Origin: Candidatus Dormiibacterota bacterium
GTDB taxonomy: Bacteria > Chloroflexota > Dormibacteria > CF-121
Length of the DNA stretch: 64,000 nucleotides
Direction: 5' to 3'
NCBI GenBank assembly: GCA_035544955.1
Contig: DASZZN010000012.1
Coordinates: 154,685-218,684, forward strand
Shown: one piece after another, positions 1,125 through 21,486 of the stretch
Layout of the letters: each line of letters starts with the position of its first letter
Position numbering within the stretch: the first letter of the stretch is position 1
The notes under the pieces: generated by a model
The model's input: the letters and a program-made list of their open reading frames with translations, nothing else
The model's database searches: none
Told to the model about the DNA's origin: nothing
Position numbers and translations under genes: made by a program

Positions 1125-1153
1125 GGCACCACGCACTACAATCAACGCTGGTC

Positions 1154-3025
1154 GTGCCAACTGAACTCAGCCGCCGGGAGTTTTCCTGGGTCCTCGGCGG
1201 CCCCCAGGGTGGGGGCATCAACGCCTCAGCGGAGATCTATGCCAAGGCGCTCAGCCACGGCGGCCTCCACGTCTTCGCCAACATCGAGTTCCACTCGAAC
1301 ATCATGGGTAAGCACAGCTACTACCGGGTCACGGCCGCGCCGGTACCGGTCCATTCCCACATCGACGAGATCCACATGCTGGTGGCGCTGGACCAGGAGT
1401 CCCTCTTCGGCGACGCCCCCGAGCGCAAGCACTATCCCAGCCACACGGGTCACGTCCACCAGGTGGCGCGCGGCGGCGGCGTCATCTACGACGCTGACCT
1501 GAAGATCGACCCGGGCCGGTTCGGTCGCGACGACATCAACCTCTATCCGATCCCCTTTTTCGAGGTCCTGGAAGAGGCCCTGAAAGAGGTGGGGAAGGGC
1601 GGTCAGTCGCGCAAGTACATCGTCATGCGCAACACGGTGGCCCTGGGTGCGTCGATCGGCATCTCCGGTTACGACGAGGAACTGCTCTTCGATGCGATTC
1701 GCAACGAGTTCAAAGGCCGGAAGGCGGAAGCGGCCGAGATGAACGTGGCGGCGGTCCGGGCTGCGGCCGCCTACGCGCGCAGCCAGTTCAAGACCAAGCC
1801 CGAGCGCCGGCTGTTGCCGGTCCCGGTCGAAAGCCGAAAAGACCGGATGTTGATCAAAGGCTTCCAGGCGGTGGGCATCGCCAAGCTCAAGGCGGGCCTC
1901 GGCATGCAGACCTACTACCCGATCAGCCCCGCGACCGACGAGAGTGTCTATTTGGAGCAGAAGGGTCCCCAGTATCAGTGCACGGTCGTCCAGTGCGAGG
2001 ACGAGATCGCCAGCATCAACATGGCGATCGGCGCGGCGCACATGGGCGTGCGGGCCGCAACGTCCACCGCTGGCCCGGGCTTCGCCTTGATGTCGGAAGG
2101 GTTCGGCTTCGCGGCCATCACGGAGGCTCCCGGCCCGGTCGTCTTCCTCTGGCAGCGTGGCGGGCCGAGCACCGGCCTCCCCACCCGCACCGAGCAGGCT
2201 GACCTGCAATTCGCGCTGCATCCCGCGCACGGCGACTTCCCGCACATCGTCGTGGCGCCGGGCGATATCGACGAATCCTTCACTGACAGCTTCGAGAGCT
2301 TTAACTGGGCCGATCGCTATCAAATGCCGGTGGTCGTGCTGCTCGAGAAGTTCCTGGCCTCATCAATGTTCAGCAACGATGGCATCGACATGAGCAAGCT
2401 GAAGATCGATCGCGGACTGATCCATCAACCGGTGGACGCTGACGGTGATGGCTACCGCCGCCACGCCATCACCGCGGACGGCATCAGTCCGCGCACCATA
2501 CCAGGAATGCCCGGCGGGATCTTCTCGACCACCAGCGACGAGCACGACCCCGAGGGCCATATCACCGAAGGCATCGAAAACCGCATCGCCATGATGCGCA
2601 AACGGATGGCCAAGCTCGAAACGGCCGCCCGCGAGATTCCGGCCTCGTCAAAGTTCACCCTGCACGGTCCGCGGCAGGCCGACATGACACTGGTGGCGTG
2701 GGGAGCGACCAAGGGTGCCATCGTCGACGCCATGAGCGAGCTCGAGAACGACGGCCGCTCGGTGAACTTCCTGCAGATCCGCCTGATGCGGCCCTTCCCG
2801 GCGGATGCCGTGGCGGCGATCCTTCGCAACGCCAGGCTAACGGTGCTGATCGAAAACAACTATTCGGCGCAGCTCGGTGCCCTGATTTCCGAGCAGACCG
2901 GTATCGCGCTCGACCACCACGTACTGAAGTACGACGGCCGGCCCTTTTCGCGCAACGAGATCGTCGAGGGCGTGCGGTCGGCCCTGTCGGAGCAAAAGAA
3001 GGAGGTCATGGTGTCCCATGCCTGA
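1154..3025 (+). CDS. korA: 2-oxoacid:ferredoxin oxidoreductase alpha subunit with fused gamma domain
   Basis: N-terminus SWVLGGPQGGGINASAEIYAKAL matches the gamma (pyruvate-flavodoxin oxidoreductase) domain. The rest matches the KorA/OorA alpha domain. The ORF track runs it from 512 in a frame overlapping the upstream gene, so the start is probably a GTG near 1154 and is uncertain. Confidence 0.8.
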   Translation: MPTELSRREFSWVLGGPQGGGINASAEIYAKALSHGGLHVFANIEFHSNIMGKHSYYRVTAAPVPVHSHIDEIHMLVALDQESLFGDAPERKHYPSHTGHVHQVARGGGVIYDADLKIDPGRFGRDDINLYPIPFFEVLEEALKEVGKGGQSRKYIVMRNTVALGASIGISGYDEELLFDAIRNEFKGRKAEAAEMNVAAVRAAAAYARSQFKTKPERRLLPVPVESRKDRMLIKGFQAVGIAKLKAGLGMQTYYPISPATDESVYLEQKGPQYQCTVVQCEDEIASINMAIGAAHMGVRAATSTAGPGFALMSEGFGFAAITEAPGPVVFLWQRGGPSTGLPTRTEQADLQFALHPAHGDFPHIVVAPGDIDESFTDSFESFNWADRYQMPVVVLLEKFLASSMFSNDGIDMSKLKIDRGLIHQPVDADGDGYRRHAITADGISPRTIPGMPGGIFSTTSDEHDPEGHITEGIENRIAMMRKRMAKLETAAREIPASSKFTLHGPRQADMTLVAWGATKGAIVDAMSELENDGRSVNFLQIRLMRPFPADAVAAILRNARLTVLIENNYSAQLGALISEQTGIALDHHVLKYDGRPFSRNEIVEGVRSALSEQKKEVMVSHA

Positions 3026-3974
3026 GGCCGCGGCCGCCGCTCCCAAGAAGTTTGCGCTGCAGGAATACAAGACCGAGGTCCATGTCGACTGGTGTCCTGG
3101 TTGTGGCGACTTCGGCATCCTGAGCTCGATCCAGCAGGCACTCTTCCAGCTCCAGATCCCGCCCTATAAGGTCGCGATGATCTCCGGGATCGGCTGCTCC
3201 GGCAAGACACCGCATTACATCGATACCTACGGCCTGCATACGCTCCACGGGCGGGCGCTGCCGGTCGCGACCGGCGCCAAGCTGGCCAACAACCAGCTGA
3301 CGGTGGTCGCCGTGGGCGGCGATGGGGATGGCTATGGCATCGGCGCCGGCTACTTCGTCAATAGCGGCCGTCGCAACGTCGACATGACCTACATCGTGTT
3401 CAACAACGGCGTCTACGGGCTGACAAAAGGCCAGGCCTCGCCCACGCTCGCGAAAGGGTCGAAGACGAAATCGATGCCGGAAGCTTCGATCCAGGAAGGG
3501 GTAAACCCGATCGCCCTCGCGCTCGGTGCTGGATACACCTGGATCGGACGCGGCTACGCCCTCGATGTCAAGAACCTGGTCTCGTTGGTGGTGCAGGCAA
3601 TCAGCCACAAAGGGACCTCGTTCCTGGACGTCTTCCAGACCTGCCCGGTCTACAACGACCTGCGCACCAAGGAGTGGTACGCCGGCGAGGATATCGGTCG
3701 AACCCGCATTCGGAAGCTGGACGCCGACGCAAAATGGGATCCGATTGTGAAGGACCCAGCGAGCATCGACGAGATCGTGGAGAAAAAGGGCCTCGCGCTG
3801 CGAGCCTCCTACGAGACCGGTGACAGCCTGGCGACGGGCGTCTTCTACTCCATTCAGCTGCCGACCTACGATGAGCAGCTGGCCATGAAGGTCCCGGCAC
3901 TCAAAGATCACCCGCTCGTCGACCTCCCGCTCTACCAGCGGGACGTCGATCCCCTCTTCGCCGAGCTGGCGTAG
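3018..3974 (+). CDS. korB: 2-oxoacid:ferredoxin oxidoreductase beta subunit (TPP-binding)
   Basis: CPGCGDF motif and TPP-binding GDGDGYGIG motif. Overlaps the korA stop by 8 nt, which suggests translational coupling. Confidence 0.85.
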   Translation: MPEAAAAAPKKFALQEYKTEVHVDWCPGCGDFGILSSIQQALFQLQIPPYKVAMISGIGCSGKTPHYIDTYGLHTLHGRALPVATGAKLANNQLTVVAVGGDGDGYGIGAGYFVNSGRRNVDMTYIVFNNGVYGLTKGQASPTLAKGSKTKSMPEASIQEGVNPIALALGAGYTWIGRGYALDVKNLVSLVVQAISHKGTSFLDVFQTCPVYNDLRTKEWYAGEDIGRTRIRKLDADAKWDPIVKDPASIDEIVEKKGLALRASYETGDSLATGVFYSIQLPTYDEQLAMKVPALKDHPLVDLPLYQRDVDPLFAELA

Positions 3975-6016: not shown

Positions 6017-6928
6017 GTGGCCCTTCCCAGACCGGCTCCCCCGCGTCTCGTGTTCAGGCCGGCCCGCCGAGTCTCATGGGCTACGTGGATCTTCGCCATC
6101 CTGGTGCTCGTGCTGGCGGGCGGCGCCGTCGGCGCCTTTCTTATGGTGGTGCTGCCCCAGCGGGTGGCGCAGCTGGCGGTATCAGAAGCCGGCGAGCTCG
6201 CGCTGGCGCGAAAAGGCACGACTGACGTGAGTACCGCGGTCAGCAGCCTCTGGACAGACATGTCGGCCAAAGGCGGCATCAGCCTCTCGGCTGACCAGCT
6301 CACCAAAGACCTGGCTCTCGCGCAGGCCACCGAAAAGTCCGCGGATGATGCACTGAGCCACGTTCAGGCCGCCGAAACGTACATGTCCCAGGCGGACGGT
6401 CTCCCATTCCAGTTCCACTCGCCGACGTTCATCGCGGCGGATCGGCCCAGCCTGCAGCACCTGGACAAGGCGCTGCAAGCCACCATCAAGCTGACCCACG
6501 CCGCCACCCTTCAACTGACCCTGGCGCAGAACCTCAACCAGGACGCCCGGACCATTAGCGGCGGCCTCACCACGAGTGTGAACGCTCGGGCGTGGACGGA
6601 CGCGGCCCGGACGGCATCCGCCCTGACCACCGACCTGAGGGCGCAGCAGCCGCCGGTCAGCGACCCGGAGGCGCTGCTCGACCCGCTCTGGAGCAAGTGG
6701 GTCGACGCCATGCTCGCGGTCGCGACCAGCGTGCAGCAGCTCAGCCTGGCCTCGGCGGGCGGCCAAACCCAACAGGCCCAGCAGGCGAGCCGGAGCCTGG
6801 CGGCAGCCTGGGGCCAGCTTGCCAGCAGCTTCTCGGACGCCCAGAATGGCGCCGCCGCATGGCAGGCAAAGACGGTCAAGCCCCTCCTCGACACGATCGC
6901 CAGTGAGAAGTCGGCGGGCGGCGCTTAG
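6017..6928 (+). CDS. hypothetical membrane-anchored protein (Ala/Gln-rich)
   Basis: 303 aa ORF with an N-terminal TM helix (WIFAILVLVLAGGAVGAFLMVVL). No recognisable domain. Coding potential is supported only by ORF length and codon bias. Confidence 0.4.
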   Translation: MALPRPAPPRLVFRPARRVSWATWIFAILVLVLAGGAVGAFLMVVLPQRVAQLAVSEAGELALARKGTTDVSTAVSSLWTDMSAKGGISLSADQLTKDLALAQATEKSADDALSHVQAAETYMSQADGLPFQFHSPTFIAADRPSLQHLDKALQATIKLTHAATLQLTLAQNLNQDARTISGGLTTSVNARAWTDAARTASALTTDLRAQQPPVSDPEALLDPLWSKWVDAMLAVATSVQQLSLASAGGQTQQAQQASRSLAAAWGQLASSFSDAQNGAAAWQAKTVKPLLDTIASEKSAGGA

Positions 6929-8031
6929 ACCCGCGTTACCAGGTCGTTACTCAGCTCGCTGAGTCGCCGAACCCCGAGCAGGGTCATCGAGACCTCCATC
7001 TCCTCACGCAGCATCGCCAGCATGCGACTCACGGCATCCGCGCCGCCGACCGCCAGCGCATAGAGAAAAGGCCGCCCGATCAGCACGCCTTTTGCCCCCA
7101 AGGAGAGGGCCTTGAGGACGTCGGTGCCACGCCGAATGCCGCCATCCATGAGCACCGGAATGTCGCGGCCGACCGCGTCGACCACCTCGGGTAGCGCGTC
7201 GAGGCTGGCAATCGCGTAGTCGAGCTGACGTCCGCCGTGGTTGCTCACGATCAGCCCGCGCGCGCCCGCCTCGACCGCGTGGCGGGCATCGTCGGAGCGA
7301 ACGATGCCCTTGACCATCACCGGAAGCGAGGTCCTGGCGACGAGCCATTCGAGGTCGGCCCAGCCAAGGCCGGGATGGGTGTTGGCATTCACGTTCTGCG
7401 CGAACGGATCCGGGCCTTCGTCGGGGTCCGCTCGACGCCGGTCGTCGAGATTGGCGTAGCGAAGCCCCTGCGGCAGGCTGAAGGCGTTGCGGATGTCCCG
7501 CTCGCGTCGCCCGGTCTTGGGGAGGTCGACGGTCAGCAGGATCGCGGAGTAGCCGGCATCGACGGCGCGCTCGACGAAGCCGGCGCTCACCGCCCGCTCC
7601 GCGTGCATGTAGAGCTGGAACCAGCGGGGCCCGCTTGCGGCGGCAGCGACCTCTTCGATGGCGGCGCTCGCCAGCGTGCTGAGGGCATAGGCGATGCCTG
7701 CCTCCGATGCCGCCCGGTAGGCGGCCAGCTCGCCATCGGGATGGGCCATCCGCTGGATCGCGGTGGGCGCCAGGTGGACTGGCATCCGGAAGCGCTGGCC
7801 GAACAACTCGCTGCTCAGGTCGGTGTGGTCCGTGGACGCCAGGACCTTGAAGCGGAACCGATAGCGGGCAAAGGCCTCGCGGTTACCCCGAAGCGCCGCT
7901 TCGTCCTCGGAGCCGCCGGCGATGTAGTCATAGATGCCTTGCGGAAGGACCGCCCGAGCCGCCGGCTCGAAGTCATCCAGCTTGAGCGGAGGTGCCGGCC
8001 GGGTCTTTTTGTCGACCATCGAATCGGCCAT
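6925..8031 (-). CDS. lldD: FMN-dependent alpha-hydroxy acid dehydrogenase/oxidase (L-lactate dehydrogenase/glycolate oxidase family)
   Basis: Motifs match the FMN alpha-hydroxyacid oxidising family (e.g. SNHGGRQLD, the VLMDGGIRRGTDVLKALSLGA FMN-binding region). The start is taken at MADSMVDKK rather than the ORF-track upstream Met. Confidence 0.8.
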   Translation of the reverse strand: MADSMVDKKTRPAPPLKLDDFEPAARAVLPQGIYDYIAGGSEDEAALRGNREAFARYRFRFKVLASTDHTDLSSELFGQRFRMPVHLAPTAIQRMAHPDGELAAYRAASEAGIAYALSTLASAAIEEVAAAASGPRWFQLYMHAERAVSAGFVERAVDAGYSAILLTVDLPKTGRRERDIRNAFSLPQGLRYANLDDRRRADPDEGPDPFAQNVNANTHPGLGWADLEWLVARTSLPVMVKGIVRSDDARHAVEAGARGLIVSNHGGRQLDYAIASLDALPEVVDAVGRDIPVLMDGGIRRGTDVLKALSLGAKGVLIGRPFLYALAVGGADAVSRMLAMLREEMEVSMTLLGVRRLSELSNDLVTRV

Positions 8032-8129
8032 GGCGCCAATTGTGGCGTTTTGGGGCCGCCCTGTGTAACGTGTACGGAAGCGCCTGTACGAAAGCGTCGG
8101 ATGCTGCAAGGAAGGGAGGTTTCCTCGTT

Positions 8130-10046
8130 ATGAGTGGGGCCATCGCGATCCTGGCGTTTCATCAGGTCTACCAGCCGCTCGGCGACAACATTTTTCTCTC
8201 GGCGATCGTCGCAGGCATTCCTCTATACATCTTGTTCGTGATGCTGGCAGTGCTACGGCTGCCTGCCTGGATGTCGGCCTTGACGGCGATGCTCTCCGCG
8301 GCCGTGCTCGCGGCGCTGGTCTGGGGCATGCCACTCGGCCTTGACCTTTCGGCGACCACCGAGGGCATGGCGAATGGGTTGTGGCCCATCAGCTGGATCG
8401 TGCTCAACGCGGTCTTCTTCCACAACCTGACCATCGCCAGCGGCGACTTCGACGTGATCCGCCGTTCGCTCACCCGATTGACGGGGGACCGTCGCGTCCA
8501 GGCCCTGCTGGTGGCGTTTTGCTTCGGCGCCCTGATGGAAGGCATTGCCGGTTTCGGTGCCCCGGTTGCGATCTCGGCGGCCATCCTCGCCAGCCTCGGA
8601 TTCGAGCCGATCAGCGCGGCGGTGCTCGCCCTGCTCGCCAACACGGCGCCCGTGGCCTTCGGGTCGATCGGCATCCCGATCGTCACGCTCGGTCTGCTGA
8701 CCGCGCCCATCATCGGCCACAGCGCGAACGATCAAACGCAGGTCACCCTGGCACTCTCCGCCATGGTTGGCCGGCAACTTCCGATCTTCTCGGTCATCAT
8801 CCCGGCCTTCTTGATCGTCGTCCTCGCGGGTTGGAAGCGCATGGTCGAAGTGCTGCCGGCCGTCCTCACCGCGGGCGTCGTCTTTGCGGTTGTCCAGTTC
8901 CTGGTCTCGAACTTCATCGGTCCAGAGTTGACAGACGTGCTCGCCGCGCTGGTCTCGATGGCGGCTGTCGCTCTCTTACTTCGCGTTTGGAAGCCGAGGA
9001 CGTTGTGGGGCTTTGCCGCCGACCGCGCGCCGGTGCCGGGCGCCGCCCCGAGGTTCCGCAGCGTCGGCGCCGCGGTGGCGCAGGTCGCCGATCCGCCTGC
9101 CCGGATCGTGCGCGCCTACATGATGTACGTGATCCTGGTGGTGGTCATCCTCATCGGCCAGATGGGCAACTTGCCGTTCTTTTCCGGCAGCCCTCCCGGC
9201 AACGTGAAGAACGCCCTCCACACACCCGCGAATATCACGGCCGACCTCAAATGCGGCCAGCCGGGATTCGCGCTCTGCCCCAATCCGTGGTTTGGGCCCA
9301 GTCCGGTAAAGGATGCCGGCGCCTTCAAGTTCCCGTTCTGGAGATTCCAGTGGCCCTTCAGCTACGAAGGCACATCGGCCAAACCGAAGGCCCTGATCAG
9401 CCAGGAACCGACGATCGTGACCAAGTCCACGCCCTATCCCATCACCTTTACCTGGGACTTCTTATCGGCAGCCGGCAGTCTCGTGCTCTTCGCGTCGATC
9501 ATCGCCTTTATCGTGATGGCAATCCGGGGTGCGCCGCTGCGCCTGTTCTTTACGACCTACGGGCGTACGCTACGCCAGCTAGCCCTGCCCATCATGACGA
9601 TCGCCTTCATCCTGGGCATCGCCGCCGTCATGAACTTCTCGGGCATGACGTCTACGCTTGCCCTCCTCATGGCAAAAGCCGGAGGGTTCTTCCCCTTCTT
9701 CTCGGCGGTCATCGGTGCGCTGGGCGTCTTCTTGACCGGCAGCGACACCGCATCCAACACGCTCTTCGGCCCGATGCAAGCCCATACCGCCCAGCAAATC
9801 GTCATCGGCGGGCACCATCTGAGTCCTGTCCTGACGGCGGGCACCAACTCGTCGGGGGGTGTCATGGGCAAGATGATCAGCCCGCAAAACCTGTCGGTGG
9901 GCGCGGCGGGCGTCAACCGAGTGGGCTCGGAGGGCGAGATCTTCCGCCGTACCATCGGCTACAGCCTGATCCTCACGGCCGCCGTCGGCATCGTCGCCAT
10001 GATCGAGGTCTACCTGATCCCCGGGATCATCCCAACCTTCGGTTAG
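8130..10046 (+). CDS. lctP: L-lactate permease (LctP family)
   Basis: About 640 aa polytopic membrane protein with LctP-like blocks (GFGAPVAISAAIL, FGSIGIPIV). RBS AAGGGAGG lies about 10 nt upstream of the ATG at 8130. Confidence 0.8.
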   Translation: MSGAIAILAFHQVYQPLGDNIFLSAIVAGIPLYILFVMLAVLRLPAWMSALTAMLSAAVLAALVWGMPLGLDLSATTEGMANGLWPISWIVLNAVFFHNLTIASGDFDVIRRSLTRLTGDRRVQALLVAFCFGALMEGIAGFGAPVAISAAILASLGFEPISAAVLALLANTAPVAFGSIGIPIVTLGLLTAPIIGHSANDQTQVTLALSAMVGRQLPIFSVIIPAFLIVVLAGWKRMVEVLPAVLTAGVVFAVVQFLVSNFIGPELTDVLAALVSMAAVALLLRVWKPRTLWGFAADRAPVPGAAPRFRSVGAAVAQVADPPARIVRAYMMYVILVVVILIGQMGNLPFFSGSPPGNVKNALHTPANITADLKCGQPGFALCPNPWFGPSPVKDAGAFKFPFWRFQWPFSYEGTSAKPKALISQEPTIVTKSTPYPITFTWDFLSAAGSLVLFASIIAFIVMAIRGAPLRLFFTTYGRTLRQLALPIMTIAFILGIAAVMNFSGMTSTLALLMAKAGGFFPFFSAVIGALGVFLTGSDTASNTLFGPMQAHTAQQIVIGGHHLSPVLTAGTNSSGGVMGKMISPQNLSVGAAGVNRVGSEGEIFRRTIGYSLILTAAVGIVAMIEVYLIPGIIPTFG

Positions 10047-10070
10047 CTGCAAAACAATTCCCTGCCTCCG

Positions 10071-10107
10071 CTCCCTCCCCCGCGCACGGGGGAGGGTCGG
10101 GGTGGGG
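10071..10107. repeat. palindromic G4-type repeat element, copy A (intergenic, lctP-glcD)
   Basis: CTCCCTCCCCC-GCGCAC-GGGGGAGGG-TCGGGGTGGGG. A C-rich arm is complementary to a G-rich arm and is followed by extra G-tracts, giving four G-runs. Near-identical copies are at 12346 and 19672. Confidence 0.6.
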
Positions 10108-10123
10108 CGTACGCTTTAGCAAA

Positions 10124-11605
10124 ATGGAAGCGGTGGATCGCGATCAGCTACTGGGCCGGATTCGCGGCGTGGTTGGCGATCACTACGCGTTCGCGGATCC
10201 CTACGAGATGCGGCTCTACCAGTACGACGCCAGTCCCGAGACGGCGCTGCCGGATATCGTCGTCATCCCGGGGACGGCGAAGGAGGTCGCGCAGCTTGTC
10301 AAGATGTGCTGCGACGCCGGCGTGCCGATCACGGCGCGCTCAGGCGCCAGCAGCCTGGCCGGGGGCACCGTCCCGGTCGAGGGCGGAGTCGTCATCACGT
10401 TCGCCCGGATGGACCGCATCCTCGAGATCGATATCGACAACCTGCGCGCGGTGGTCCAGCCCGGTGTCGTCAACCTGGCGCTGAGTCAGGCGCTCAAACC
10501 GCATGGCTACTACTACGCACCCGACCCGTCGAGCCAGGGTGCTTGCACCATAGGAGGGAACGTCGCCACCAACGCCGGTGGCCCGCACACCCTCCTCTAC
10601 GGCGTCACGGTCAACCACGTCACCGGCCTCGAGGTCGCCCTCGCCAGCGGCGAGCTGGTGCAAGTCGGCGGGCGCAACGTCGCGGAGGCCATCGGCTATG
10701 ACCTGACAGGTGTCCTGGTCGGATCGGAGGGAACGATGGGGGTCGTCACGCGGGTCTGGGTGAAGATCCAGCCCCTGCCGCCGGTGCAAAAGACCTTGAT
10801 GGCTGTCTACCCCGATGTTGCCTCCGCGAGCAACGCCGTGTCCGCCATCGTGCGTACCGGGATCCTTCCCGCCGCCATGGAGATGATGGACAAGCTCTCC
10901 ATCCAGGCGATCGAAGCGGCATCGCACGCGGGCTATCCACTGGATGCCGGCGCGGTCTTGCTGCTCGAAGTCGACGGCACGCCAGAGGTCGCCGAGGAGC
11001 TCGGCGAGCGGATGGCGAAGGTCTGTCGCGAGAACGGTGCCACCGAGGTGCGTGTCGCGCGCAACGAGGGGGAACGCCAGGCACTCTGGAAAGGCCGCAA
11101 GGGGGCGTTCTCCGCGATGGGTCGCCTATCGTCCGATTTCTACGTGATGGATGGCGTCGTGCCGCGAACCAAGTTGCCCGAGACGCTCGCGAAGATCGAC
11201 GCCATCAGCGAGCGAACCGGCTTCAAGATTTGCAATGTCTTCCATGCGGGCGACGGCAATCTTCACCCCCTCGTCCTTTTCGACGCCTTCAAAGCCGGCC
11301 AGTATGAAGCGGTGCTGCGGATCGGGGACGAGATCCTGAAACTCTGCGCGGATGCCGGCGGATCGGTGACCGGGGAACACGGAATCGGGCTGGAAAAGCG
11401 TGAGAACATCCGCTACGTCTTTTCCGACGACGACCTCGAGGTGATGGATCGTGTTCGCCGTGTTTTCGATCCGCAACGCCTGATGAACCCCGGAAAAGTG
11501 TTTCCCAGCAAAGGCGCCAAGCCTCCACGTGTGCCGATACCGGAAGGATCCCCTCGACGACAGCCGCGCGCCGCCGTTCCCGCGGGAGACGACGTGTGGG
11601 TGTGA
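10124..11605 (+). CDS. glcD: glycolate oxidase subunit GlcD (FAD-linked oxidase)
   Basis: FAD-binding PCMH-domain motifs (RSGASSLAGG, GEHGIGL). ATG at 10124 (MEAVDRDQLL). The ORF track's upstream 5' extension is out of frame with lctP. Confidence 0.85.
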   Translation: MEAVDRDQLLGRIRGVVGDHYAFADPYEMRLYQYDASPETALPDIVVIPGTAKEVAQLVKMCCDAGVPITARSGASSLAGGTVPVEGGVVITFARMDRILEIDIDNLRAVVQPGVVNLALSQALKPHGYYYAPDPSSQGACTIGGNVATNAGGPHTLLYGVTVNHVTGLEVALASGELVQVGGRNVAEAIGYDLTGVLVGSEGTMGVVTRVWVKIQPLPPVQKTLMAVYPDVASASNAVSAIVRTGILPAAMEMMDKLSIQAIEAASHAGYPLDAGAVLLLEVDGTPEVAEELGERMAKVCRENGATEVRVARNEGERQALWKGRKGAFSAMGRLSSDFYVMDGVVPRTKLPETLAKIDAISERTGFKICNVFHAGDGNLHPLVLFDAFKAGQYEAVLRIGDEILKLCADAGGSVTGEHGIGLEKRENIRYVFSDDDLEVMDRVRRVFDPQRLMNPGKVFPSKGAKPPRVPIPEGSPRRQPRAAVPAGDDVWV

Positions 11606-12885
11606 AGGCGCGTCCGCAAGCATTGCCCGGGCAAGAGATCACCGTCGACGAGCAACGAACCTTCAGCGTGGATGGTCTGTTGCCGTCGACCGTGATGCGC
11701 CCGAACGATGCCGGTGAAGCCGCGCGTGACCTGCACGCCTGTGACGAGGGGCCGGCCGCCGTCGTGGTCTGGGGCGGAGGGACGCAGATGCGGCTGGGCG
11801 CCCCACCCAGGCGGTACGAGGTTGCGTTTTCGACCGAACGGATGACGCGTCTGCTCGAGTACGAGCCGGCCGACCTCACCTGCCGAGTCGAGGCAGGGAT
11901 GCGGCTCAGCGACCTGCAGGCGGCGCTGCGGGCCCAGGGTCAGAGGCTCCCGCTCGATCCACCGCATCCCGAACACGCGACGGTCGGCGGGATGGTCGCA
12001 GCCAACACCAACGGCCTTACCCGCGGGCGCTATGGCACCGTCCGCGACTGGGTGATCGGCATCGCAGTGGCGTACCCGTCTGGCAAGGTCGCGCGAGCGG
12101 GCGGCAAGGTTGTCAAGAACGTCGCGGGCTATGACCTGATGAAGCTGCACATCGGCGCGCTCGGCACGCTGGGCGTGGTCGCGGAAGTGAACTTCAAAGT
12201 CCAGGCCCGGCCCGAGGCGGAAGCGACGTTGCTGGCCCACTTCGAGGCGCCGGGGCCCGCCCTCGCGGTGGGGCTCAAGCTGGCCCGCCAGTACCTCGCG
12301 CCCGCTGCCGCCATCGTCCTCGACGGTGAGACCTTTTCCGAGTTTCTCCCTCCCCCGCATGCAGGGGAGGGTCGGGGTGGGGGCCCGGCCCAGTGGACCC
12401 TCGCTCTGAAGCTGGAAGGCTATGCCCGCGAGGTCGATGCGGCCAAGGACGTGGCCATTGGGTTCATCCACGAGTCCGGCGGCGTTGTCGATGAACCGGG
12501 GATCCCGCCCTCTTTCTGGGACGCCGCCAGGGACTGGTCCGCTCCCGCGGACGAGGGGGTGGTGCTTCGCGCCGTCGTTCCTCTTAACTCAAGCCAAAAC
12601 TTGATCGCGGCCGTTCGGGCGGATGCCCGGGTGCTGGCCCAGCCCGCGTCGGGCGTGGTCGACGTCCGGGTGCCGGCGACATCGGCCGCCGGGACCCTCT
12701 CACGGTTGCGCGACGCGGCCGGCGCCGAGGGGCAGGTGGTGGTCGCTGCGGCTCCCGTCGCCGTCAAACAGGCCGTTGACGTCTGGGGACCGCCGCCACC
12801 CGGCTTTCCCATCATGCGTGCCCTCAAGCAGGCCCTCGATCCGAATGGGATCCTCAACCCGGGCCGGTTCGTGGGCGGGATTTAG
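11596..12885 (+). CDS. glcE: glycolate oxidase FAD-binding subunit GlcE
   Basis: FAD-binding-domain protein (VVWGGGTQM, KNVAGYDL) overlapping the glcD stop. Contains an in-frame insertion encoded by repeat copy B (FLPPPHAGEGRGGGP). Confidence 0.8.
   Translation: MGVKARPQALPGQEITVDEQRTFSVDGLLPSTVMRPNDAGEAARDLHACDEGPAAVVVWGGGTQMRLGAPPRRYEVAFSTERMTRLLEYEPADLTCRVEAGMRLSDLQAALRAQGQRLPLDPPHPEHATVGGMVAANTNGLTRGRYGTVRDWVIGIAVAYPSGKVARAGGKVVKNVAGYDLMKLHIGALGTLGVVAEVNFKVQARPEAEATLLAHFEAPGPALAVGLKLARQYLAPAAAIVLDGETFSEFLPPPHAGEGRGGGPAQWTLALKLEGYAREVDAAKDVAIGFIHESGGVVDEPGIPPSFWDAARDWSAPADEGVVLRAVVPLNSSQNLIAAVRADARVLAQPASGVVDVRVPATSAAGTLSRLRDAAGAEGQVVVAAAPVAVKQAVDVWGPPPPGFPIMRALKQALDPNGILNPGRFVGGI
12346..12383. 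repeat. palindromic G4-type repeat element, copy B (in-frame inside glcE)
   Basis: CTCCCTCCCCC-GCATGCA-GGGGAGGG-TCGGGGTGGGGG. Same family and orientation as copies A and C. Confidence 0.6.
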
Positions 12886-12895
12886 TGGTGAGCCG

Positions 12896-14254
12896 ATGAC
12901 CGAACTGTCCACCCTCGACTTCAAGGCGCAGCTCCAGCGGGATGGCGTGCCAACCCCGGCCACCGGCATCGACATGGACCTGGTCCGCGACTGCATTCAC
13001 TGCGGGCTCTGCCTCCCCAAGTGCCCGACCTTCCGCACCCTGCACCACGAGGGCGACAGCCCGCGCGGGCGGATGTGGCAAATCAAAGAGGCGACGCTCG
13101 GCCTGGTGGCCTTCGATGACCCGCGCTTTCAGGCCCACATCTATCAGTGCTTCAACTGCCGTGCTTGCGAAACCGCCTGCCCGTCCGGCGTCCAGTTCGG
13201 AACCGTGATGGAGATGGCTCGTGCGAAGACCCCACCCCAGAATCGCCGCGACCGGATGGTGCGGGCCGTGCTCCTCAACGGGTTGCTGCCGCATCCGCGT
13301 CGCTTGAAGATCGCCGGCTGGCTCTACCGCGCCACGCGCGCGCTGCGGCTGTCTGCGCTCTTACGCCGGAGCGGCGCCTGGAAGGTCCTGCCTCTGGGCA
13401 AGTTTGCGGCCTTCCCGCCCGTGGGTGATACGAGTCCGTATCGGACGCCACTGCCTGCGCTGACTCCGGCGCAGGGCGCCCGTCGCGCCCGCGTCGGCCT
13501 GCTGACCGGCTGTGTCCAAGACGAGATGTTCCGGGGCACGAATCGCCGCACCGCGCTCGCCCTCGCGCGCAACGGCTGCGACGTGATCGTGCCATCGGCG
13601 CGCGTGTGCTGCGGCGCCCTGGCCTCGCACGCCGGGGAGGCGCAGACCGCCGAGCACCTCGCCGGCCTGACCATGGACGCTTTTGGCGGCCCGGGCCTCG
13701 ACGCGGTGGTCGTCAACGCTGCGGGCTGCGGCTCGAACATGAAGGAGTACGAGGTGCAGCTCCGCAATGACGCCGGGCGCCGGGAGGCCACGCCGGCTTT
13801 CTCCAAGACGGTGAAGGATGCCTCGGAGTTCCTGATCGCGCTCGGCCTCCAACCACCGACTCGCGCCATCCGCCTCAAAGTCGCCTACCAGGACCCGTGC
13901 CACCTGTTGCACGGCCAGAAGGTGCACCGGCAGCCGAGACAGGTCCTCGCCATGATTCCCGGCATCGAGCTCGTCGAGATGAAGGAGTCAGATTGGTGTT
14001 GCGGCTCGGCTGGTGTCTACAACCTGACCCACCCGGAGATCTCCGAAGAGGCGCTCGGTTGGAAGGTGCGGAACATCATCGATTGCGGTGCGCAAGTGAT
14101 CGCATCGGCCAACCCCGGGTGCGTCCTTCAGGTTGGGATGGGGCTGCAGCGCGCGGGCCACGACGTTCCCGTCGTTCATGTCATGGACCTGCTGGGCTGG
14201 GCGTACGGCGACGATCAGCAGCGCCCGCCGATCGTCCGCCGGGCGATGGCGTGA
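12896..14254 (+). CDS. glcF: glycolate oxidase iron-sulfur subunit GlcF
   Basis: Two ferredoxin-type 4Fe-4S motifs (CIHCGLCLPKCP, CFNCRACETACP) and C-terminal CCG domains. ATG at 12896 (MTELSTLDF). Confidence 0.8.
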   Translation: MTELSTLDFKAQLQRDGVPTPATGIDMDLVRDCIHCGLCLPKCPTFRTLHHEGDSPRGRMWQIKEATLGLVAFDDPRFQAHIYQCFNCRACETACPSGVQFGTVMEMARAKTPPQNRRDRMVRAVLLNGLLPHPRRLKIAGWLYRATRALRLSALLRRSGAWKVLPLGKFAAFPPVGDTSPYRTPLPALTPAQGARRARVGLLTGCVQDEMFRGTNRRTALALARNGCDVIVPSARVCCGALASHAGEAQTAEHLAGLTMDAFGGPGLDAVVVNAAGCGSNMKEYEVQLRNDAGRREATPAFSKTVKDASEFLIALGLQPPTRAIRLKVAYQDPCHLLHGQKVHRQPRQVLAMIPGIELVEMKESDWCCGSAGVYNLTHPEISEEALGWKVRNIIDCGAQVIASANPGCVLQVGMGLQRAGHDVPVVHVMDLLGWAYGDDQQRPPIVRRAMA

Positions 14255-18153: not shown

Positions 18154-18669
18154 TTACCCGGTCGGCGCGATCAGAAAGATCCAGATATCCCAGGAGACAT
18201 GACTGATGATCAGCGGAGCGAGGCGTTGTTCTTTCGCATAGAGCGCCCCCCAGTAGAGGCCGGCTGTGGCCGCGGCACCGGTAAGCGTCAGGTTTGCGGA
18301 CACGAGGTGGACGCCGCCGTAGATCGACGACGCGATCAGTGTGCCGCGGACGCGTCCGTAGCGTCGCATCAGGCCTCGCTGAACCAGACCTCGCCAGAAC
18401 AGTTCCTCGCCAGGGCCAATGACAAGACCGAGCGCCGTTGCGATCGCGGGGCGTGGGCCCGCCGTCCGCAGCTCGTAGATCCGGCCGATCTCGCGATCGC
18501 CGGCGGGCATGATTCGCCGCGCCATCCGGTCGCCGACCTGGAAGATTGCGTACAGTCCAGCCGCCGAACCCAACCCCTTGGCGAAATCCCGGAGGCGCGG
18601 CCGTTCGCGGCGCAGGGCGGGCTCGGCGGCAAGTGCGTAGGCGCCCAGGCCGCCAACCCCAAGCGTCAT
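18154..18669 (-). CDS. CPBP-family intramembrane metalloprotease (CAAX protease/Abi)
   Basis: EExxxR motif (EELFWRG) and second motif (HLVSAN) in a polytopic membrane protein. Confidence 0.7.
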   Translation of the reverse strand: MTLGVGGLGAYALAAEPALRRERPRLRDFAKGLGSAAGLYAIFQVGDRMARRIMPAGDREIGRIYELRTAGPRPAIATALGLVIGPGEELFWRGLVQRGLMRRYGRVRGTLIASSIYGGVHLVSANLTLTGAAATAGLYWGALYAKEQRLAPLIISHVSWDIWIFLIAPTG

Positions 18670-18752
18670 CCGGAGCCAGAACTGCGACCGCGGTCCGCGG
18701 AAGGCGGCCGTCCAGACCGCGGCGGCCAGGCCCAGGCCGGCAATAACGCGCT

Positions 18753-20720
18753 TCAGCGGACTGCCGATCCCGCGACCAGGCCGACCAGCAGCAGGACTCC
18801 GAAGGCGCTGTGCAGGCGGGCCGTCATGAGGTCGATCATCGCGATCGCGCGCAGGTGGCCCTCGGCTCCGCGCTCGGCATCACGAAGGATCAACGCCATC
18901 AGCGGCAGGCTGAACAGCGTGAGGAGCGCGAGCTTCGGCAGGGCGCCGACCATCACCGCCAGGCCGACGGCGACGTAGGCCCCGAGAACGAGCATCACGT
19001 AAACCCAGTGCGCCGCCTCCCGGCCGACCTGGGCCGAGAAGGTTGTAAATCCGTGCCGCGTGTCCTCCGCGACGTCGCGCCACTCATTCCCGTGCAGGAT
19101 CGCCGTCACCAGCAGTCCGACCGGGAGCGAGACGATCAGCAGGTTCGGGTCGAAGGCGCCGGTCACCGCGAAATATGAACCCACAACCATCAGGGGCCCC
19201 ATCAAGAGGAAGACAAGAGGCAAACCGAGCGCCCGGTACTTGTACTGGAAGGGTGGGGCGGTATAGAAGTAGCCGCCGATGAAGCCGATCAATCCGAGCA
19301 GCACGATGGGCCAGCCCCGCTGGAGCAGGAGGAAGATGCCCATCAGGAGGGCAAGGATGAATCCCGACCAGGCGACCACGAAGGCATCGCGCTCGGTGAT
19401 CCGGCCCTTGAGGATCGCCATCGACATCCGGGGAGACGTGATCGAGTCGATTCCGTGCCGAACGTCATAGATCTCGTTGATCACGTTGGTTTCGATATGC
19501 AAACCGAGCGCCCCGAGCAACGCGGCGACGAAGAGCGGCCAGTGCATCCGTCCCTGGCTGAGCGCGATCGCGCCGCCCACCGAGACCGGCAACACCGATG
19601 CGGTGAAGCTGAACGGGCGGACGACCTCCCAGGCCCCGCCCAGCCTACGACCAATCCCGGGCCTTTCTTTCCCTCCCCCTCTGGGGGAGGGCAGGGAGGG
19701 GGCTGTGGCGGCCGTCACCGACTCAGAGGCGTAGGCGACCGCGGCGTCGAGGACCGCGTCGACCTGGGCCGTCTCCTGCAGGATCGGCTGCAGCAGCGGA
19801 ACATCCATGCCGGCGTCATGGTAGGCAGCCGCACGCGCCGCCACGTCTTTCACGGAGCCACAGAGGATGAAGGCGTCCAGCAGCTCGTCGGGGATCAGTT
19901 CTCCAGCGCGGTGATAATCCTCAGCTCGCCAGGCGGTCGCGATCTGGCTGCGCAGCGCCGGGTCGAATCCCGCGCGCTTCATCGAGATGTCGCTGAGAAC
20001 TGAGATCATGTAAATGACGAACGGCTCGCGCTTGGCCCGGTTCAGCGCTTCCTGCCGGCTGCTGTCGAAGAGGCAGAGGAGGTAGCCACGGAAATCGATG
20101 TCGCTGGCCGAGCGACCATGGGCCGAGGCACTCTCGAGGACGCGGGCGCGCATCTTCTGGAAGGCCGGCAGCGATTCCGCGGGACGGGCCAGGTAGCCGT
20201 CGGCTTTCTCGCCGCAGAGGTCCAGGAAGGGTGTGCGGTAGGCCGCGATGTAGATCGGGATCCGGTGCGGCGGTTGAAACATCGGTTGGAGCGGAGGGAC
20301 TTTGTCATTGAGCGTCAGCGGCTGGCCGTTCCATAGCCGGCGGATCTGGTCGATCGATTCCGAAACGCGGGCGACCGTGTCGTCGTAGGGGATCGCCATC
20401 TGCGCAAGCCGCAGCGGCAAGCCGCTTCCCAGGGCCAGCGTGACCCGGCGCGGCGCGAGATCATCGAGGGCCGACATCGTCATCGCCACCACGACCGGAT
20501 GGCGGGTGTACGGGTTGAGGGCGCCGGCACCCAGTCCGATGCGGCGCGTTTCCATCCCCATCGCGCTCAGGTAGGTAATGGGATCGCGCTCGAAATAGCT
20601 GTCGTGGACCCAGATGGAATCGAGGCCGAGGTCCTCCGCCCGGCGCGCCCATGCCGCGGCTTCGCGCACGTCGCCCCGGGCCGCTAGCCCGATTCCGACT
20701 GGGCGGCCAAGCTCTGCCAT
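18753..20720 (-). CDS. fusion protein: N-terminal LLM-class (luciferase-like, probably F420/flavin-dependent) oxidoreductase and C-terminal UbiA-family (MenA-like) prenyltransferase
   Basis: The N-terminal 330 aa match LLM flavin/F420 oxidoreductases (MAELGRPVGIGL ... SIWVHDSYFERDP). The C-terminal 290 aa are a polytopic UbiA prenyltransferase with NEIYDVRHGID (NxxxDxxxxxD). The two are joined by a linker (PSLPSPRGGGKERPG) encoded by repeat copy C. The true ATG is at 20720; the ORF-track 5' extension overlaps ubiE out of frame. Confidence 0.7.
   Translation of the reverse strand: MAELGRPVGIGLAARGDVREAAAWARRAEDLGLDSIWVHDSYFERDPITYLSAMGMETRRIGLGAGALNPYTRHPVVVAMTMSALDDLAPRRVTLALGSGLPLRLAQMAIPYDDTVARVSESIDQIRRLWNGQPLTLNDKVPPLQPMFQPPHRIPIYIAAYRTPFLDLCGEKADGYLARPAESLPAFQKMRARVLESASAHGRSASDIDFRGYLLCLFDSSRQEALNRAKREPFVIYMISVLSDISMKRAGFDPALRSQIATAWRAEDYHRAGELIPDELLDAFILCGSVKDVAARAAAYHDAGMDVPLLQPILQETAQVDAVLDAAVAYASESVTAATAPSLPSPRGGGKERPGIGRRLGGAWEVVRPFSFTASVLPVSVGGAIALSQGRMHWPLFVAALLGALGLHIETNVINEIYDVRHGIDSITSPRMSMAILKGRITERDAFVVAWSGFILALLMGIFLLLQRGWPIVLLGLIGFIGGYFYTAPPFQYKYRALGLPLVFLLMGPLMVVGSYFAVTGAFDPNLLIVSLPVGLLVTAILHGNEWRDVAEDTRHGFTTFSAQVGREAAHWVYVMLVLGAYVAVGLAVMVGALPKLALLTLFSLPLMALILRDAERGAEGHLRAIAMIDLMTARLHSAFGVLLLVGLVAGSAVR
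19672..19703. repeat. palindromic G4-type repeat element, copy C (inside the fusion-gene linker)
   Basis: CCCTCCCCC-TCT-GGGGGAGGG-CAGGGAGGGGG on the plus strand. Same orientation as copies A and B although the host gene is on the minus strand. Confidence 0.55.
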
Positions 20721-20784
20721 GAGATCACCGTACTCCACGGCTGCACCGGTCGCAATCGGGATCCGGCCTGAGGCGGCCATAATC

Positions 20785-21486
20785 ATGAACGTGGGGCAGG
20801 AGGCGCGGGCTGATCGAATCCGCCAGATGTTCGACCAGGTGGCCGCCCGATACGACGCTCGCAACCGGCTCTTCAGCGCGGACCGCGACCGCGCGTGGCG
20901 CCGCCGGGCCGCCCGCCGCGCGGCGCTTCGCCCGGGCCAGACGGCGCTCGACCTGTGCACCGGCACGGGCAGACTCGCCCATGAGCTCCTCCCGTATGTG
21001 GGTCCATCCGGCCGGGTAATCGGGATCGACTTCTCGCCCGCGATGCTAGAGCTGGCTCGCCAGCGTGAACCACGCGTCGAGTATCGCCTGGGTGACGTCA
21101 CCCGGCTCAACGAGGCCGACGGCAGCGTCGATGCCGTCACCATCGCATTCGGCTTGCGCAACCTCGTCGACCGAGAGGCCGCGCTGCGCGAGATGTTTCG
21201 GGTCCTCCGCGCCGGCGGGCGCCTCGTCATCCTCGAGTTCGCTCCGCCGCCGCGTGGCTTGCTGATGCGCGCCTACCGCTTCTATCTCAGCCGTGTCATG
21301 CCGGTCGTCGTTGGCCTGCGAAGCGGCGACGAGGCGTCCGCGTACCGGTACCTGGCGGACACGGTGCAAGCCTTCCCCCGGCCGGCGGAGCTGGCGTGGC
21401 AGCTGGAGGGTCTGGGCTTTACGGTTTCGGTGGAGCGCATGACGGTCGGCATCGTCGCGCTCCATGTCGCGGTACGGCGGCGCTGA
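20785..21486 (+). CDS. menG: demethylmenaquinone/ubiquinone C-methyltransferase
   Basis: UbiE/MenG family signature (MFDQVAARYD, LDLCTGTG, SAM-binding fold). Divergent from the prenyltransferase fusion gene. ATG at 20785. Confidence 0.8.
   Translation: MNVGQEARADRIRQMFDQVAARYDARNRLFSADRDRAWRRRAARRAALRPGQTALDLCTGTGRLAHELLPYVGPSGRVIGIDFSPAMLELARQREPRVEYRLGDVTRLNEADGSVDAVTIAFGLRNLVDREAALREMFRVLRAGGRLVILEFAPPPRGLLMRAYRFYLSRVMPVVVGLRSGDEASAYRYLADTVQAFPRPAELAWQLEGLGFTVSVERMTVGIVALHVAVRRR

Follow-up and report, generated by a model that had tools for sequence, protein, structure and literature searches.

An old and widespread fusion of an LLM-type oxidoreductase with a MenA-like prenyltransferase, and its CPBP-family partner, in Dormibacterota and Chloroflexota

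Here we describe a gene from a Candidatus Dormiibacterota bacterium in which an oxidoreductase domain of the luciferase-like monooxygenase (LLM) family is joined to a membrane prenyltransferase domain resembling MenA, the 1,4-dihydroxy-2-naphthoate (DHNA) polyprenyltransferase of menaquinone synthesis. The gene lies in a 64,000-nucleotide stretch of contig DASZZN010000012.1 (assembly GCA_035544955.1), the whole of which is referred to below as the window. The fusion is old and widespread, and its most conserved partner is a gene of the Rce1-like/CPBP intramembrane-protease family, not the quinone methyltransferase gene menG. We have little doubt that the fusion is a genuine bifunctional enzyme of prenylquinone synthesis. 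The LLM-MenA architecture is apparently not previously described, and its domains and its partner all come from known families. A literature search found no paper describing this architecture or a MenA-CPBP pairing, and nothing relevant on Dormibacterota with menaquinone or F420, which agrees with a preliminary description of this DNA whose author did not know the architecture as a described family.

Results

The fusion gene and its product

The gene and its parts, all on the minus strand, have the following coordinates in the window.

18753..20720 (-): fusion gene, LLM-type oxidoreductase plus MenA-like prenyltransferase (open reading frame (ORF), translation, both Pfam domains)
19719..20720 (-): LLM TIM-barrel domain, amino acids (aa) 1-334, of predicted F420-dependent 'Mer-like reductase' type (Pfam, NCBIfam, PDB sequence and fold matches)
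19647..19718 (-): inter-domain linker, aa 335-358, predicted to be disordered, variable in sequence and length (predicted local distance difference test (pLDDT) < 50)
18753..19646 (-): UbiA-superfamily, MenA/UBIAD1-like prenyltransferase domain, aa 359-655, with nine predicted transmembrane helices (Pfam, NCBIfam, PDB, AlphaFold)
19446..19487 (-): first Asp-rich motif, N412-x2-N415-E416-x2-D419-x5-D425 (NVINEIYDVRHGID) (invariance in 148 sequences)
19062..19088 (-): second Asp-rich motif, N545-E546-W-R548-D549-x3-D553 (NEWRDVAED) (invariance in 148 sequences)

The ORF comprises 656 codons including the stop and encodes 655 aa. The preliminary description had counted 656 aa, so its length needs correcting by the stop, but the two domains that it named are both present. 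Pfam places Bac_luciferase (PF00296) at aa 14-306 with an E value of 1.1e-58, the domain scoring 199.5 bits against a gathering score of 27.9, and UbiA (PF01040) at aa 376-611 with an E value of 1.9e-31 (109.7 bits against 34.2). The motif NEIYDVRHGID, quoted in the same description, is found at aa 415-425 of the translation. An AlphaFold model of the fusion, built from 148 sequences and with a mean pLDDT of 83, gives a TIM barrel of high confidence over residues 1-334 and nine transmembrane helices over residues 356-654. Residues 335-358 form a disordered linker, which is the only long low-confidence stretch between the domains.

An identical protein, encoded on a 235-kb contig, is listed at NCBI under the name 'LLM class flavin-dependent oxidoreductase [Candidatus Dormibacteraeota bacterium]'. 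Database labels are split, with PGAP naming fusion proteins after their LLM half and IMG calling them MenA, and no curated NCBIfam model covers either the LLM or the UbiA domain of the fusion above its cut-off. Many database homologues are called at least 20 residues longer at the N-terminus (675-aa versions); the equivalent start here would lie at about 20780 and nearly touch the probable start of the divergent menG gene. We favour the start at 20720 because distant homologues start M-x-E-L.

The fusion is old and widespread

Two lists of homologues were compiled, the 120 best matches of the window protein and the 120 best matches of a relative that is 56% identical to it. All 120 best listed homologues of the window protein (84-100% identity) carry both Pfam domains and match at full coverage, and both domains are likewise present in all 120 best listed homologues of the relative, where the named homologues are labelled as metagenome-assembled genomes (MAGs) of Anaerolineae, Chloroflexia or Anaerolineales. 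A scan with one genome per species identified 328 genomes with a relative, of which the best 80 loci were examined. Every one of these 80 loci, drawn from many independent assemblies, spans residues ~1-650 at 54-94% identity, and their MAG labels are Dormibacterota or Chloroflexota (Limnocylindria and others). The presence of the fusion across so many independent assemblies excludes an assembly artefact.

Conservation and motif counts refer to the alignment of 148 sequences used for the model. Between the window protein and a distant group in this alignment, identity is 57% in the LLM domain, 56% in the MenA domain and 18% in the linker, and pairwise identity is 29% in the linker versus 64-69% in the domains. 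The equal conservation of the two domains indicates that the LLM domain is under the same constraint as the prenyltransferase. A decaying LLM domain is thereby ruled out, and with it the degenerate domain that the preliminary description had envisaged as one possible outcome.

We also observed the Dormibacterota-type fusion gene, at 61-91% identity and with the same gene neighbours, in 'SMAG' MAGs (loci L009, L010, L028, L048 and L053) whose labels read Candidatus Binatus, Acidoferrum, Eisenbacteria, Acidiferrales or Solibacter. Wrong taxonomic labels or contaminated bins are a likelier explanation than transfer.

The C-terminal domain has the motifs and helices of a MenA/UBIAD1-type prenyltransferase

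All top NCBIfam matches of the UbiA domain are DHNA polyprenyltransferase (MenA) models, at near full-length coverage, and its sole PDB sequence match at E <= 1e-5 is UBIAD1 (8djk, 5e-20). Across the alignment, N412, N415, E416, D419 and D425 of the first Asp-rich motif are invariant, as are N545, E546, W547, R548, D549 and D553 of the second. The Asp-rich motifs of the UbiA superfamily are NDxxDxxxD-like and DxxxD (PMC4106721), and the first motif here has NE where the superfamily form has ND. In the AlphaFold model, nine long helices cross residues 356-654, mostly at pLDDT 80-94, and the two motifs end transmembrane helices TM2 (H394-422) and TM6 (H526-548). The loop L2-3 (423-439) is modelled at low confidence; in AfUbiA the equivalent loop is disordered without ligand (PMC4106721). 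The N-terminus of AfUbiA and both of its Asp-rich motifs are cytoplasmic (PMC4106721), and the basic residues immediately ahead of TM1 in the fusion agree with a cytoplasmic N-terminus. By analogy with AfUbiA, the LLM barrel would therefore be tethered on the side of the catalytic cavity.

Judged by these motifs and helices, the domain is predicted to be a catalytically intact MenA/UBIAD1-type prenyltransferase. It is MenA-like within a distinct clade, a putative rather than an established orthologue of canonical MenA. Among unfused relatives (40-67% identity), the names in use are 'DHNA octaprenyltransferase' and plain 'prenyltransferase', and their MAGs are labelled Bacillota, Chloroflexota, Actinomycetota, Acidobacteriota and Gemmatimonadota.

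The N-terminal domain resembles F420-dependent LLM reductases

The LLM domain is modelled at high pLDDT with a (beta/alpha)8 fold, and its template modelling score (TM-score) to LLM structures is 0.84-0.88. By hidden Markov model (HMM), by PDB sequence and by fold it is nearer to the F420-dependent than to the flavin mononucleotide (FMN)-dependent members of the family. Its top NCBIfam matches, although all under cut-off, are without exception F420-class LLM models, led by Mer (163 bits) and followed by the Rv3093c type; E values are 1e-47 to 1e-17 for the F420-class models versus 2e-11 for the first non-F420 LLM model. In the PDB sequence ranking, Mer (2.5e-31) is followed by Fgd1 and then by SsuD-type FMN enzymes (8e-10), and in the fold ranking Mer (1z69/8qpl, TM-score 0.84-0.88) is followed by Fgd, Fgd2 and Adf, with the FMN monooxygenases after them. 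The F420-dependent LLMs are monophyletic and include a Mer-like 'reductase' clade (PMC6279831).

Residues were mapped to jMer through the first alignment block, which is ungapped, and read with the jMer mutagenesis paper (PMC11094777). The pair G66-A67 aligns with Gly61-Val62 of jMer, the non-prolyl cis-peptide (Gly-hydrophobic) that in F420-dependent LLM enzymes follows beta-3 and lies behind the deazaflavin. G66 is invariant, and a cis conformation in the fusion is putative. The catalytic Glu6 of Mer is replaced by G11 and the pterin-binding Asp96 by L101. Position 178 of jMer (so called here because 'Gln178' of the mutagenesis paper reads as Asn by count on the PDB sequence) aligns with R179, which lies within an invariant G-Y-L-x-R-P-x-E-S motif that is common to stand-alone LLM relatives. 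The domain also scores below the cut-offs of the Mer models (162.9 vs 276 and 128.9 vs 348.7). The replaced residues and these scores rule out that the domain is Mer itself. Sequence comparison instead points to an F420-type reductase scaffold whose substrate pocket is unlike that of Mer and which would use F420 as its cofactor.

A stand-alone LLM protein encoded in another locus (L094, 1077-3662) is 36% identical to the LLM domain of the fusion and has the motif G-Y-L-A-R-P-x-E. Its gene stands directly upstream of an F420-0:gamma-glutamyl ligase (CofE) gene, with a creatininase-family gene on the other side. The position beside CofE suggests a link between F420 and this LLM subfamily. The genomic contexts of three further stand-alone relatives (P0138, P0145 and P0185) were uninformative.

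The near-constant neighbour is a CPBP gene

The genes flanking the fusion in the window are as follows.

18154..18756 (-): Rce1-like/CPBP intramembrane-protease-family gene, downstream; canonical ORF 18154-18669, probable CTG start at 18756-18754
20785..21486 (+): UbiE/MenG-type quinol C-methyltransferase gene (menG), divergent; longest ORF from 20614, probable start ATG at 20785
20721..20784 (no strand): divergent intergenic spacer between the fusion and menG, 64 bp between two probable start codons, presumed shared promoter region

Neighbours were counted in the 76 of the 80 loci that had enough flank, within flanks of up to 8 kb. The Rce1-like/CPBP gene lies directly downstream of the fusion in 70 of these 76 loci, and in five more it is nearby on the same strand. 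In the window its product matches PF02517 (Rce1-like) at 60.4 bits against 22.4 (E 2.2e-16). Residues E88, E89, R93, H121, H157 and D161 are invariant in 43 partner sequences taken from fused, unfused and alternative-fusion contexts, and the family motifs EExxxR, xxxH and HxxxD/N are present; proteolytic activity is putative.

The start of the CPBP gene overlaps the fusion stop as ATGA, GTGA or TTGA in 21 distant loci, and the overlap site reads CTGA in the window and its near relatives. In the window the CPBP frame is open up to the fusion stop, and 18670-18756 on the minus strand encodes a conserved N-terminal helix (IAGLGLAAAVWTAAF) upstream of the ATG at 18669. Because of the CTGA at the overlap site and the conserved helix ahead of the first ATG, the CPBP gene likely starts at the CTG at 18756 and is translationally coupled to the fusion, in which case a standard gene call would shorten the protein.

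The divergent pairing of the fusion with menG, on which the preliminary description had relied, is borne out in the window, where TIGR01934, with 210 bits exceeding its cut-off of 158, and Pfam Ubie_methyltran (2.5e-54) both identify the menG product and the probable starts of the two genes are 64 bp apart. Among the 76 loci, menG is divergent and adjacent in 43 and elsewhere in the locus in six. The role in menaquinone or prenylquinone biosynthesis put forward in that description fits this linkage, which recurs in one unfused cluster, and it fits the C-terminal domain, whose best HMMs are all MenA. Apart from CPBP and menG, no neighbour is conserved across the fusion loci, and no further men, mqn or F420-biosynthesis genes occur anywhere in the 64-kb window. 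A radical S-adenosylmethionine gene at 42-1124 (+) was considered as MqnC/E or CofG/H and rejected, as it encodes an AmmeMemoRadiSam enzyme. Further genes around the fusion are housekeeping genes, for 2-oxoacid:ferredoxin oxidoreductase subunits (512-3974, +), an FMN-dependent lactate dehydrogenase, a lactate permease and a GlcDEF-like oxidase set (6925-14254).

Unfused modules and alternative fusions

The same components also occur as separate genes, arranged in two other orders. In L092 (3138-7065), from an organism of 72% GC, they are arranged as [CPBP <- UbiA][LLM ->] ... [<- UbiE]. In this locus and in L093, CPBP and UbiA are thus divergent from LLM, with UbiE two genes off, and the CPBP, UbiA, LLM and UbiE proteins are 40, 42, 38 and 36% identical, respectively, to those of the window. 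A third locus (L097, 4378-7023) has a collinear UbiA -> CPBP -> LLM operon with a 4-bp overlap between CPBP and LLM. When metagenomes were scanned for the unfused LLM, just two loci came up. The occurrence of several gene orders beside the fusion argues for functional coupling of LLM, MenA-like and CPBP proteins, often with UbiE/MenG.

The MenA-like clade has other N-terminal fusions as well (P0169, P0219, P0255 and P0187), in which the added domain is a PNPOx/PPOX-like split barrel, in MAGs labelled Dehalococcoidia, or a metal-binding cupin, in MAGs labelled Gemmatimonas. CPBP follows a PPOX-like-MenA fusion (L082, 6001-7961), a cupin-MenA fusion (L088, 5001-7032) and stand-alone MenA-like genes, one of them in a Bacillota MAG; the PPOX-MenA fusion P0255 has no CPBP neighbour. 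The best NCBIfam matches of the PPOX-like domains are F420-dependent PPOX-class models, at weak E values of 3e-7 to 1e-4 that are below cut-off, and their PDB matches are Rv2991/1RFE (E 0.027) and, marginally, 3F7E (E 0.2). These structures are listed among the FDORs in a review of F420 (PMC8498797). Given these weak F420-type matches, the same prenyltransferase may have acquired a second partner fold of deazaflavin type.

A palindromic repeat entered a pre-existing linker

The linker of the window protein contains one of three copies of a short repeat family.

19671..19702 (+): copy C, repetitive extragenic palindromic (REP)-like element, stem CCCTCCCCC/GGGGGAGGG plus a G-rich tail, in frame within the linker
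12346-12382: copy B, in frame inside the GlcE-like flavin adenine dinucleotide (FAD)-binding oxidase ORF 11596-12885 (+)
10070-10106: copy A, intergenic, ~25 nt past the lactate permease stop

Copy C was correctly placed at the domain joint in the preliminary description: a perfect palindrome, CCCTCCCCC-TCT-GGGGGAGGG, is found at 19671-19691 inside the linker, with 0.01 matches expected by chance, and on the coding strand it encodes ...LPSPRGGGK.... The family, with its three copies in the window, was recovered in 0 of 100 shuffles, and the hairpin of copy A has a computed energy of -40.5 kcal/mol (z -3.5). Linker length among homologues is 25 to 73 aa and in the window protein ~24 aa. The element or its decayed remnants are found in the linkers of the closest relatives only (~81% identity or more), in both orientations and sometimes in two copies (L005, L009 and L019), the two orientations giving the peptides P-S/P-P-x-x-G-E-G-R-V-G and T-L-P-S-P-x-x-G-G-G-K. 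No element was found in any more distant fusion with an extractable linker, and those linkers are unrelated. Copy B, with its palindrome at 12349-12370, adds ~18 aa (...FLPPPHAGEGRGGGPAQ...) to the oxidase in the window, L004 and L006 only and is absent from 12 other orthologues.

The restriction to the closest relatives, the two orientations and the in-frame sister copy together imply that the repeat entered a linker that already existed. The repeat is a selfish sequence that was inserted in frame, at a later time, into a spacer able to tolerate it, and the mechanism does not involve it. It tolerates, or prefers, in-frame insertion into permissive coding spacers, and its presence/absence polymorphism suggests that it is mobile. 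That the repeat created the fusion is ruled out, since distant fusions have repeat-free linkers. The recent fusion by repeat insertion offered in the preliminary description is hence refuted, since every one of the 80 loci, even at 54% identity, and all 240 listed homologues carry the fusion. Nor were orthologues found as two separate genes with a stop at the repeat: all 80 loci are fused, and the unfused arrangements are not collinear LLM-then-MenA.

Discussion

What might the two domains do together? We favour reduction of the ring over reduction of the side chain, and reduction itself is our leading idea. Specifically, we propose, as a tentative working model, that the LLM barrel, with F420H2 as reductant, maintains the naphthoquinone ring in the reduced state that prenylation and methylation require. 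The C-terminal domain would take polyprenyl diphosphate as donor and attach its polyprenyl chain to a naphthoquinol, most likely DHNA. The N-terminal barrel, cytoplasmic and held by a flexible tether, would sit on the same membrane face as the active site of the prenyltransferase, where it could reduce the ring of either the free head group before prenylation or demethylmenaquinone after it. Both MenA/UBIAD1-type prenylation and MenG methylation need a reduced ring, which is easily oxidised in an aerobe. The divergently encoded UbiE/MenG would then methylate the quinol. The Rce1-like/CPBP membrane protein, probably coupled to the fusion in translation, is a near-obligate partner of this prenyltransferase clade.

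Published work on other enzymes gives the model its chemical rationale. UBIAD1 is inactive without a reductant, reduction of menadione preceding its prenylation (PMC4398444), and demethylphylloquinone must be reduced by NdbB/NDC1 ahead of MenG (PMC5299476). F420H2-dependent menaquinone reductases, such as Ddn, exist in mycobacteria, and F420 production has been confirmed in Chloroflexi (PMC8498797). A more far-reaching and more doubtful idea is that a three-component membrane module of F420-type LLM, MenA-like and Rce1-like/CPBP proteins, often joined by UbiE/MenG, carries out the last stage of the synthesis of menaquinone or of a new prenylquinone in Dormibacterota, Chloroflexota and some other phyla. 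Such a module would couple the deazaflavin pool to head-group reduction and would place a homologue of a 'prenyl-protease', CPBP, in small-molecule prenyl-lipid metabolism.

Several points weigh against ring reduction by F420H2. F420 binding and the substrate of the LLM domain are predictions from comparison, and the F420 biosynthesis genes (fbi/cof) are absent from the 64-kb window. We know of no LLM-fold F420 enzyme that reduces quinones, the quinone reducers known to us being split-barrel FDORs. MenA already yields a quinol as its product, and a dedicated reductase is not obviously needed. The predicted TM-score (pTM) of 0.56 leaves the relative placement of the LLM and UbiA domains undefined in the model, and the ring-reduction model does not account for the near-universal CPBP partner, a member of a family whose bacterial proteins rarely have assigned substrates. 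Other points bear on the MenA assignment itself. The UbiA domain misses the MenA cut-offs (NF004749, 173.8 vs 277; NF004751, 147.1 vs 264; TIGR00751, 70.9 vs 102.15), menG is not within the 8-kb flanks in 27 of the 76 loci, and many unfused relatives are named 'prenyltransferase' alone, some of them labelled Actinomycetota. Cultured Actinomycetota, such as Mycobacterium tuberculosis, have a canonical MenA, so this clade could be a paralogue with another acceptor.

These last points make up much of the case for the strongest of the alternatives, in which the UbiA domain is a MenA paralogue that acts on another acceptor and, with the LLM domain and CPBP, makes an undescribed prenylated metabolite or modified quinone. 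The CPBP partner also speaks for it, as we know of none for the MenA of E. coli, Bacillus or Mycobacterium, and so does the variety of N-terminal partners (LLM, PPOX-like and cupin). Yet every top family match of the domain is MenA or UBIAD1 at near full length, UbiE/MenG is linked to it in the fused and in one unfused arrangement, IMG annotates it as MenA, and no second MenA was seen in the 64-kb window or in the flanks of up to 8 kb. On this balance we think the paralogue unlikely, though worth keeping in sight.

Could the LLM domain instead saturate one or more isoprene units of the side chain, in the manner of MenJ, and so give partially hydrogenated menaquinones? The preliminary description had offered this option; the LLM domain does sit beside the enzyme that installs the side chain, and related lineages, both Gram-positive and Chloroflexota, commonly have menaquinones that are partly saturated. 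Against this, the known prenyl reductases are FAD-dependent enzymes of the geranylgeranyl-reductase type. Hydride transfer from F420H2 needs an activated group, and the Mer-like LLM clade is known to act on C=N/C=O. The F420H2-dependent reductions in the review cited above concern activated groups, for example quinones, enones, enals and nitroaromatics (PMC8498797), whereas isolated isoprenoid double bonds are not activated. A tethered soluble barrel would also reach a head group at the surface more easily than a buried chain, and the alternative PPOX-like and cupin partners bind aromatic ligands. We regard side-chain saturation as improbable.

More improbable still is an FMN-dependent monooxygenase function of the LLM domain, by which the ring or side chain would be hydroxylated, or oxygenated in another way, to give a modified quinone. 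The Pfam family is named for monooxygenases, the PGAP label reads 'flavin-dependent oxidoreductase' and ring hydroxylations are frequent in quinone pathways, but similarity to SsuD, LuxA and MsuD is much weaker than to F420 enzymes in both sequence and fold, the neighbourhood holds no conserved flavin reductase partner, and the gene of a close paralogue lies next to that of an F420 ligase. Finally, there is a negligible chance that the fusion arose recently by accident or is an artefact of assembly, the repeat having removed an intergenic stop: the repeat does lie exactly at the junction and copy A of the same family is intergenic, but the loci and homologues listed above are fused throughout, distant linkers lack the repeat, its orientation and copy number vary in close relatives, copy B is demonstrably an in-frame insertion in another gene, and no unfused arrangement has LLM and MenA in collinear order.

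Ring reduction by F420H2 remains the reading that we prefer. Menaquinone synthesis is considered well mapped, and the handling of the naphthoquinol near MenA and MenG is known from cyanobacteria and plants only (NdbB/NDC1). In two little-studied, mostly uncultured soil phyla the prenyltransferase carries a fused reductase-type domain, and the unfused gene orders, together with the other fusions to redox or aromatic-binding domains, provide independent comparative evidence for an undescribed coupled step. If the F420 assignment is true, quinone metabolism would gain its first F420 enzyme with an LLM fold, and F420 a new physiological role outside Actinomycetota and methanogens. There is also a practical side, as the protein is common in public data, though generically annotated, and metabolic reconstructions of MAGs that rely on 'LLM oxidoreductase' (PGAP) or 'MenA' (IMG) each miss half of it. 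We see the finding as a comparative-genomics lead for quinone and F420 specialists, well supported and drawn from sequences and models.

Comparison with known systems

The repeat in the linker resembles the Rickettsia palindromic elements in being a short multi-copy palindrome that occurs both between genes and in frame within them. It differs from them in its unrelated sequence, its much shorter length (~35-40 nt), its richness in G/C tracts and its phylum.

The prenyltransferase half shares with MenA/UBIAD1 the UbiA fold with nine transmembrane helices, the motif forms N-[DE]-x2-D-x5-D and N-x-x-R-D-x3-D, the best HMM and PDB matches and a UbiE/MenG gene beside it. The fusion differs from these enzymes in its 334-aa N-terminal LLM domain, in scoring under all MenA cut-offs and in the CPBP gene that is almost always next to it. 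For the LLM half, no solved relative is closer than Mer in sequence (E 2.5e-31) or in fold (TM-score 0.86-0.88); the domain is set apart from Mer by Gly and Leu in place of Glu6 and Asp96, by the invariant Arg at position 178, by its bacterial origin and by its fusion to a membrane enzyme.

Fusions of UbiA-type prenyltransferases with soluble enzymes have a precedent in IspH-UbiA, in which IspH would supply isoprenoid for the prenyltransferase fused to it. These 'Rosetta stone' fusions have served as a functional clue (PMC4746011), and their partner is the Fe-S enzyme IspH of isoprenoid precursor synthesis, not an LLM oxidoreductase. A possible functional analogue of the LLM domain is NdbB/NDC1, which reduces the ring of a prenylated naphthoquinone for MenG (PMC5299476); in contrast to the domain described here, it is a separate protein of cyanobacteria and plants that has the unrelated type II NAD(P)H dehydrogenase fold and uses NADPH. 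For the reduction of menaquinone by F420H2 at the membrane, Ddn and the FDOR-A enzymes of mycobacteria set the precedent (PMC8498797), although they are split beta-barrels rather than TIM barrels and serve the respiratory pool, whereas the fused LLM barrel would serve quinone biosynthesis.

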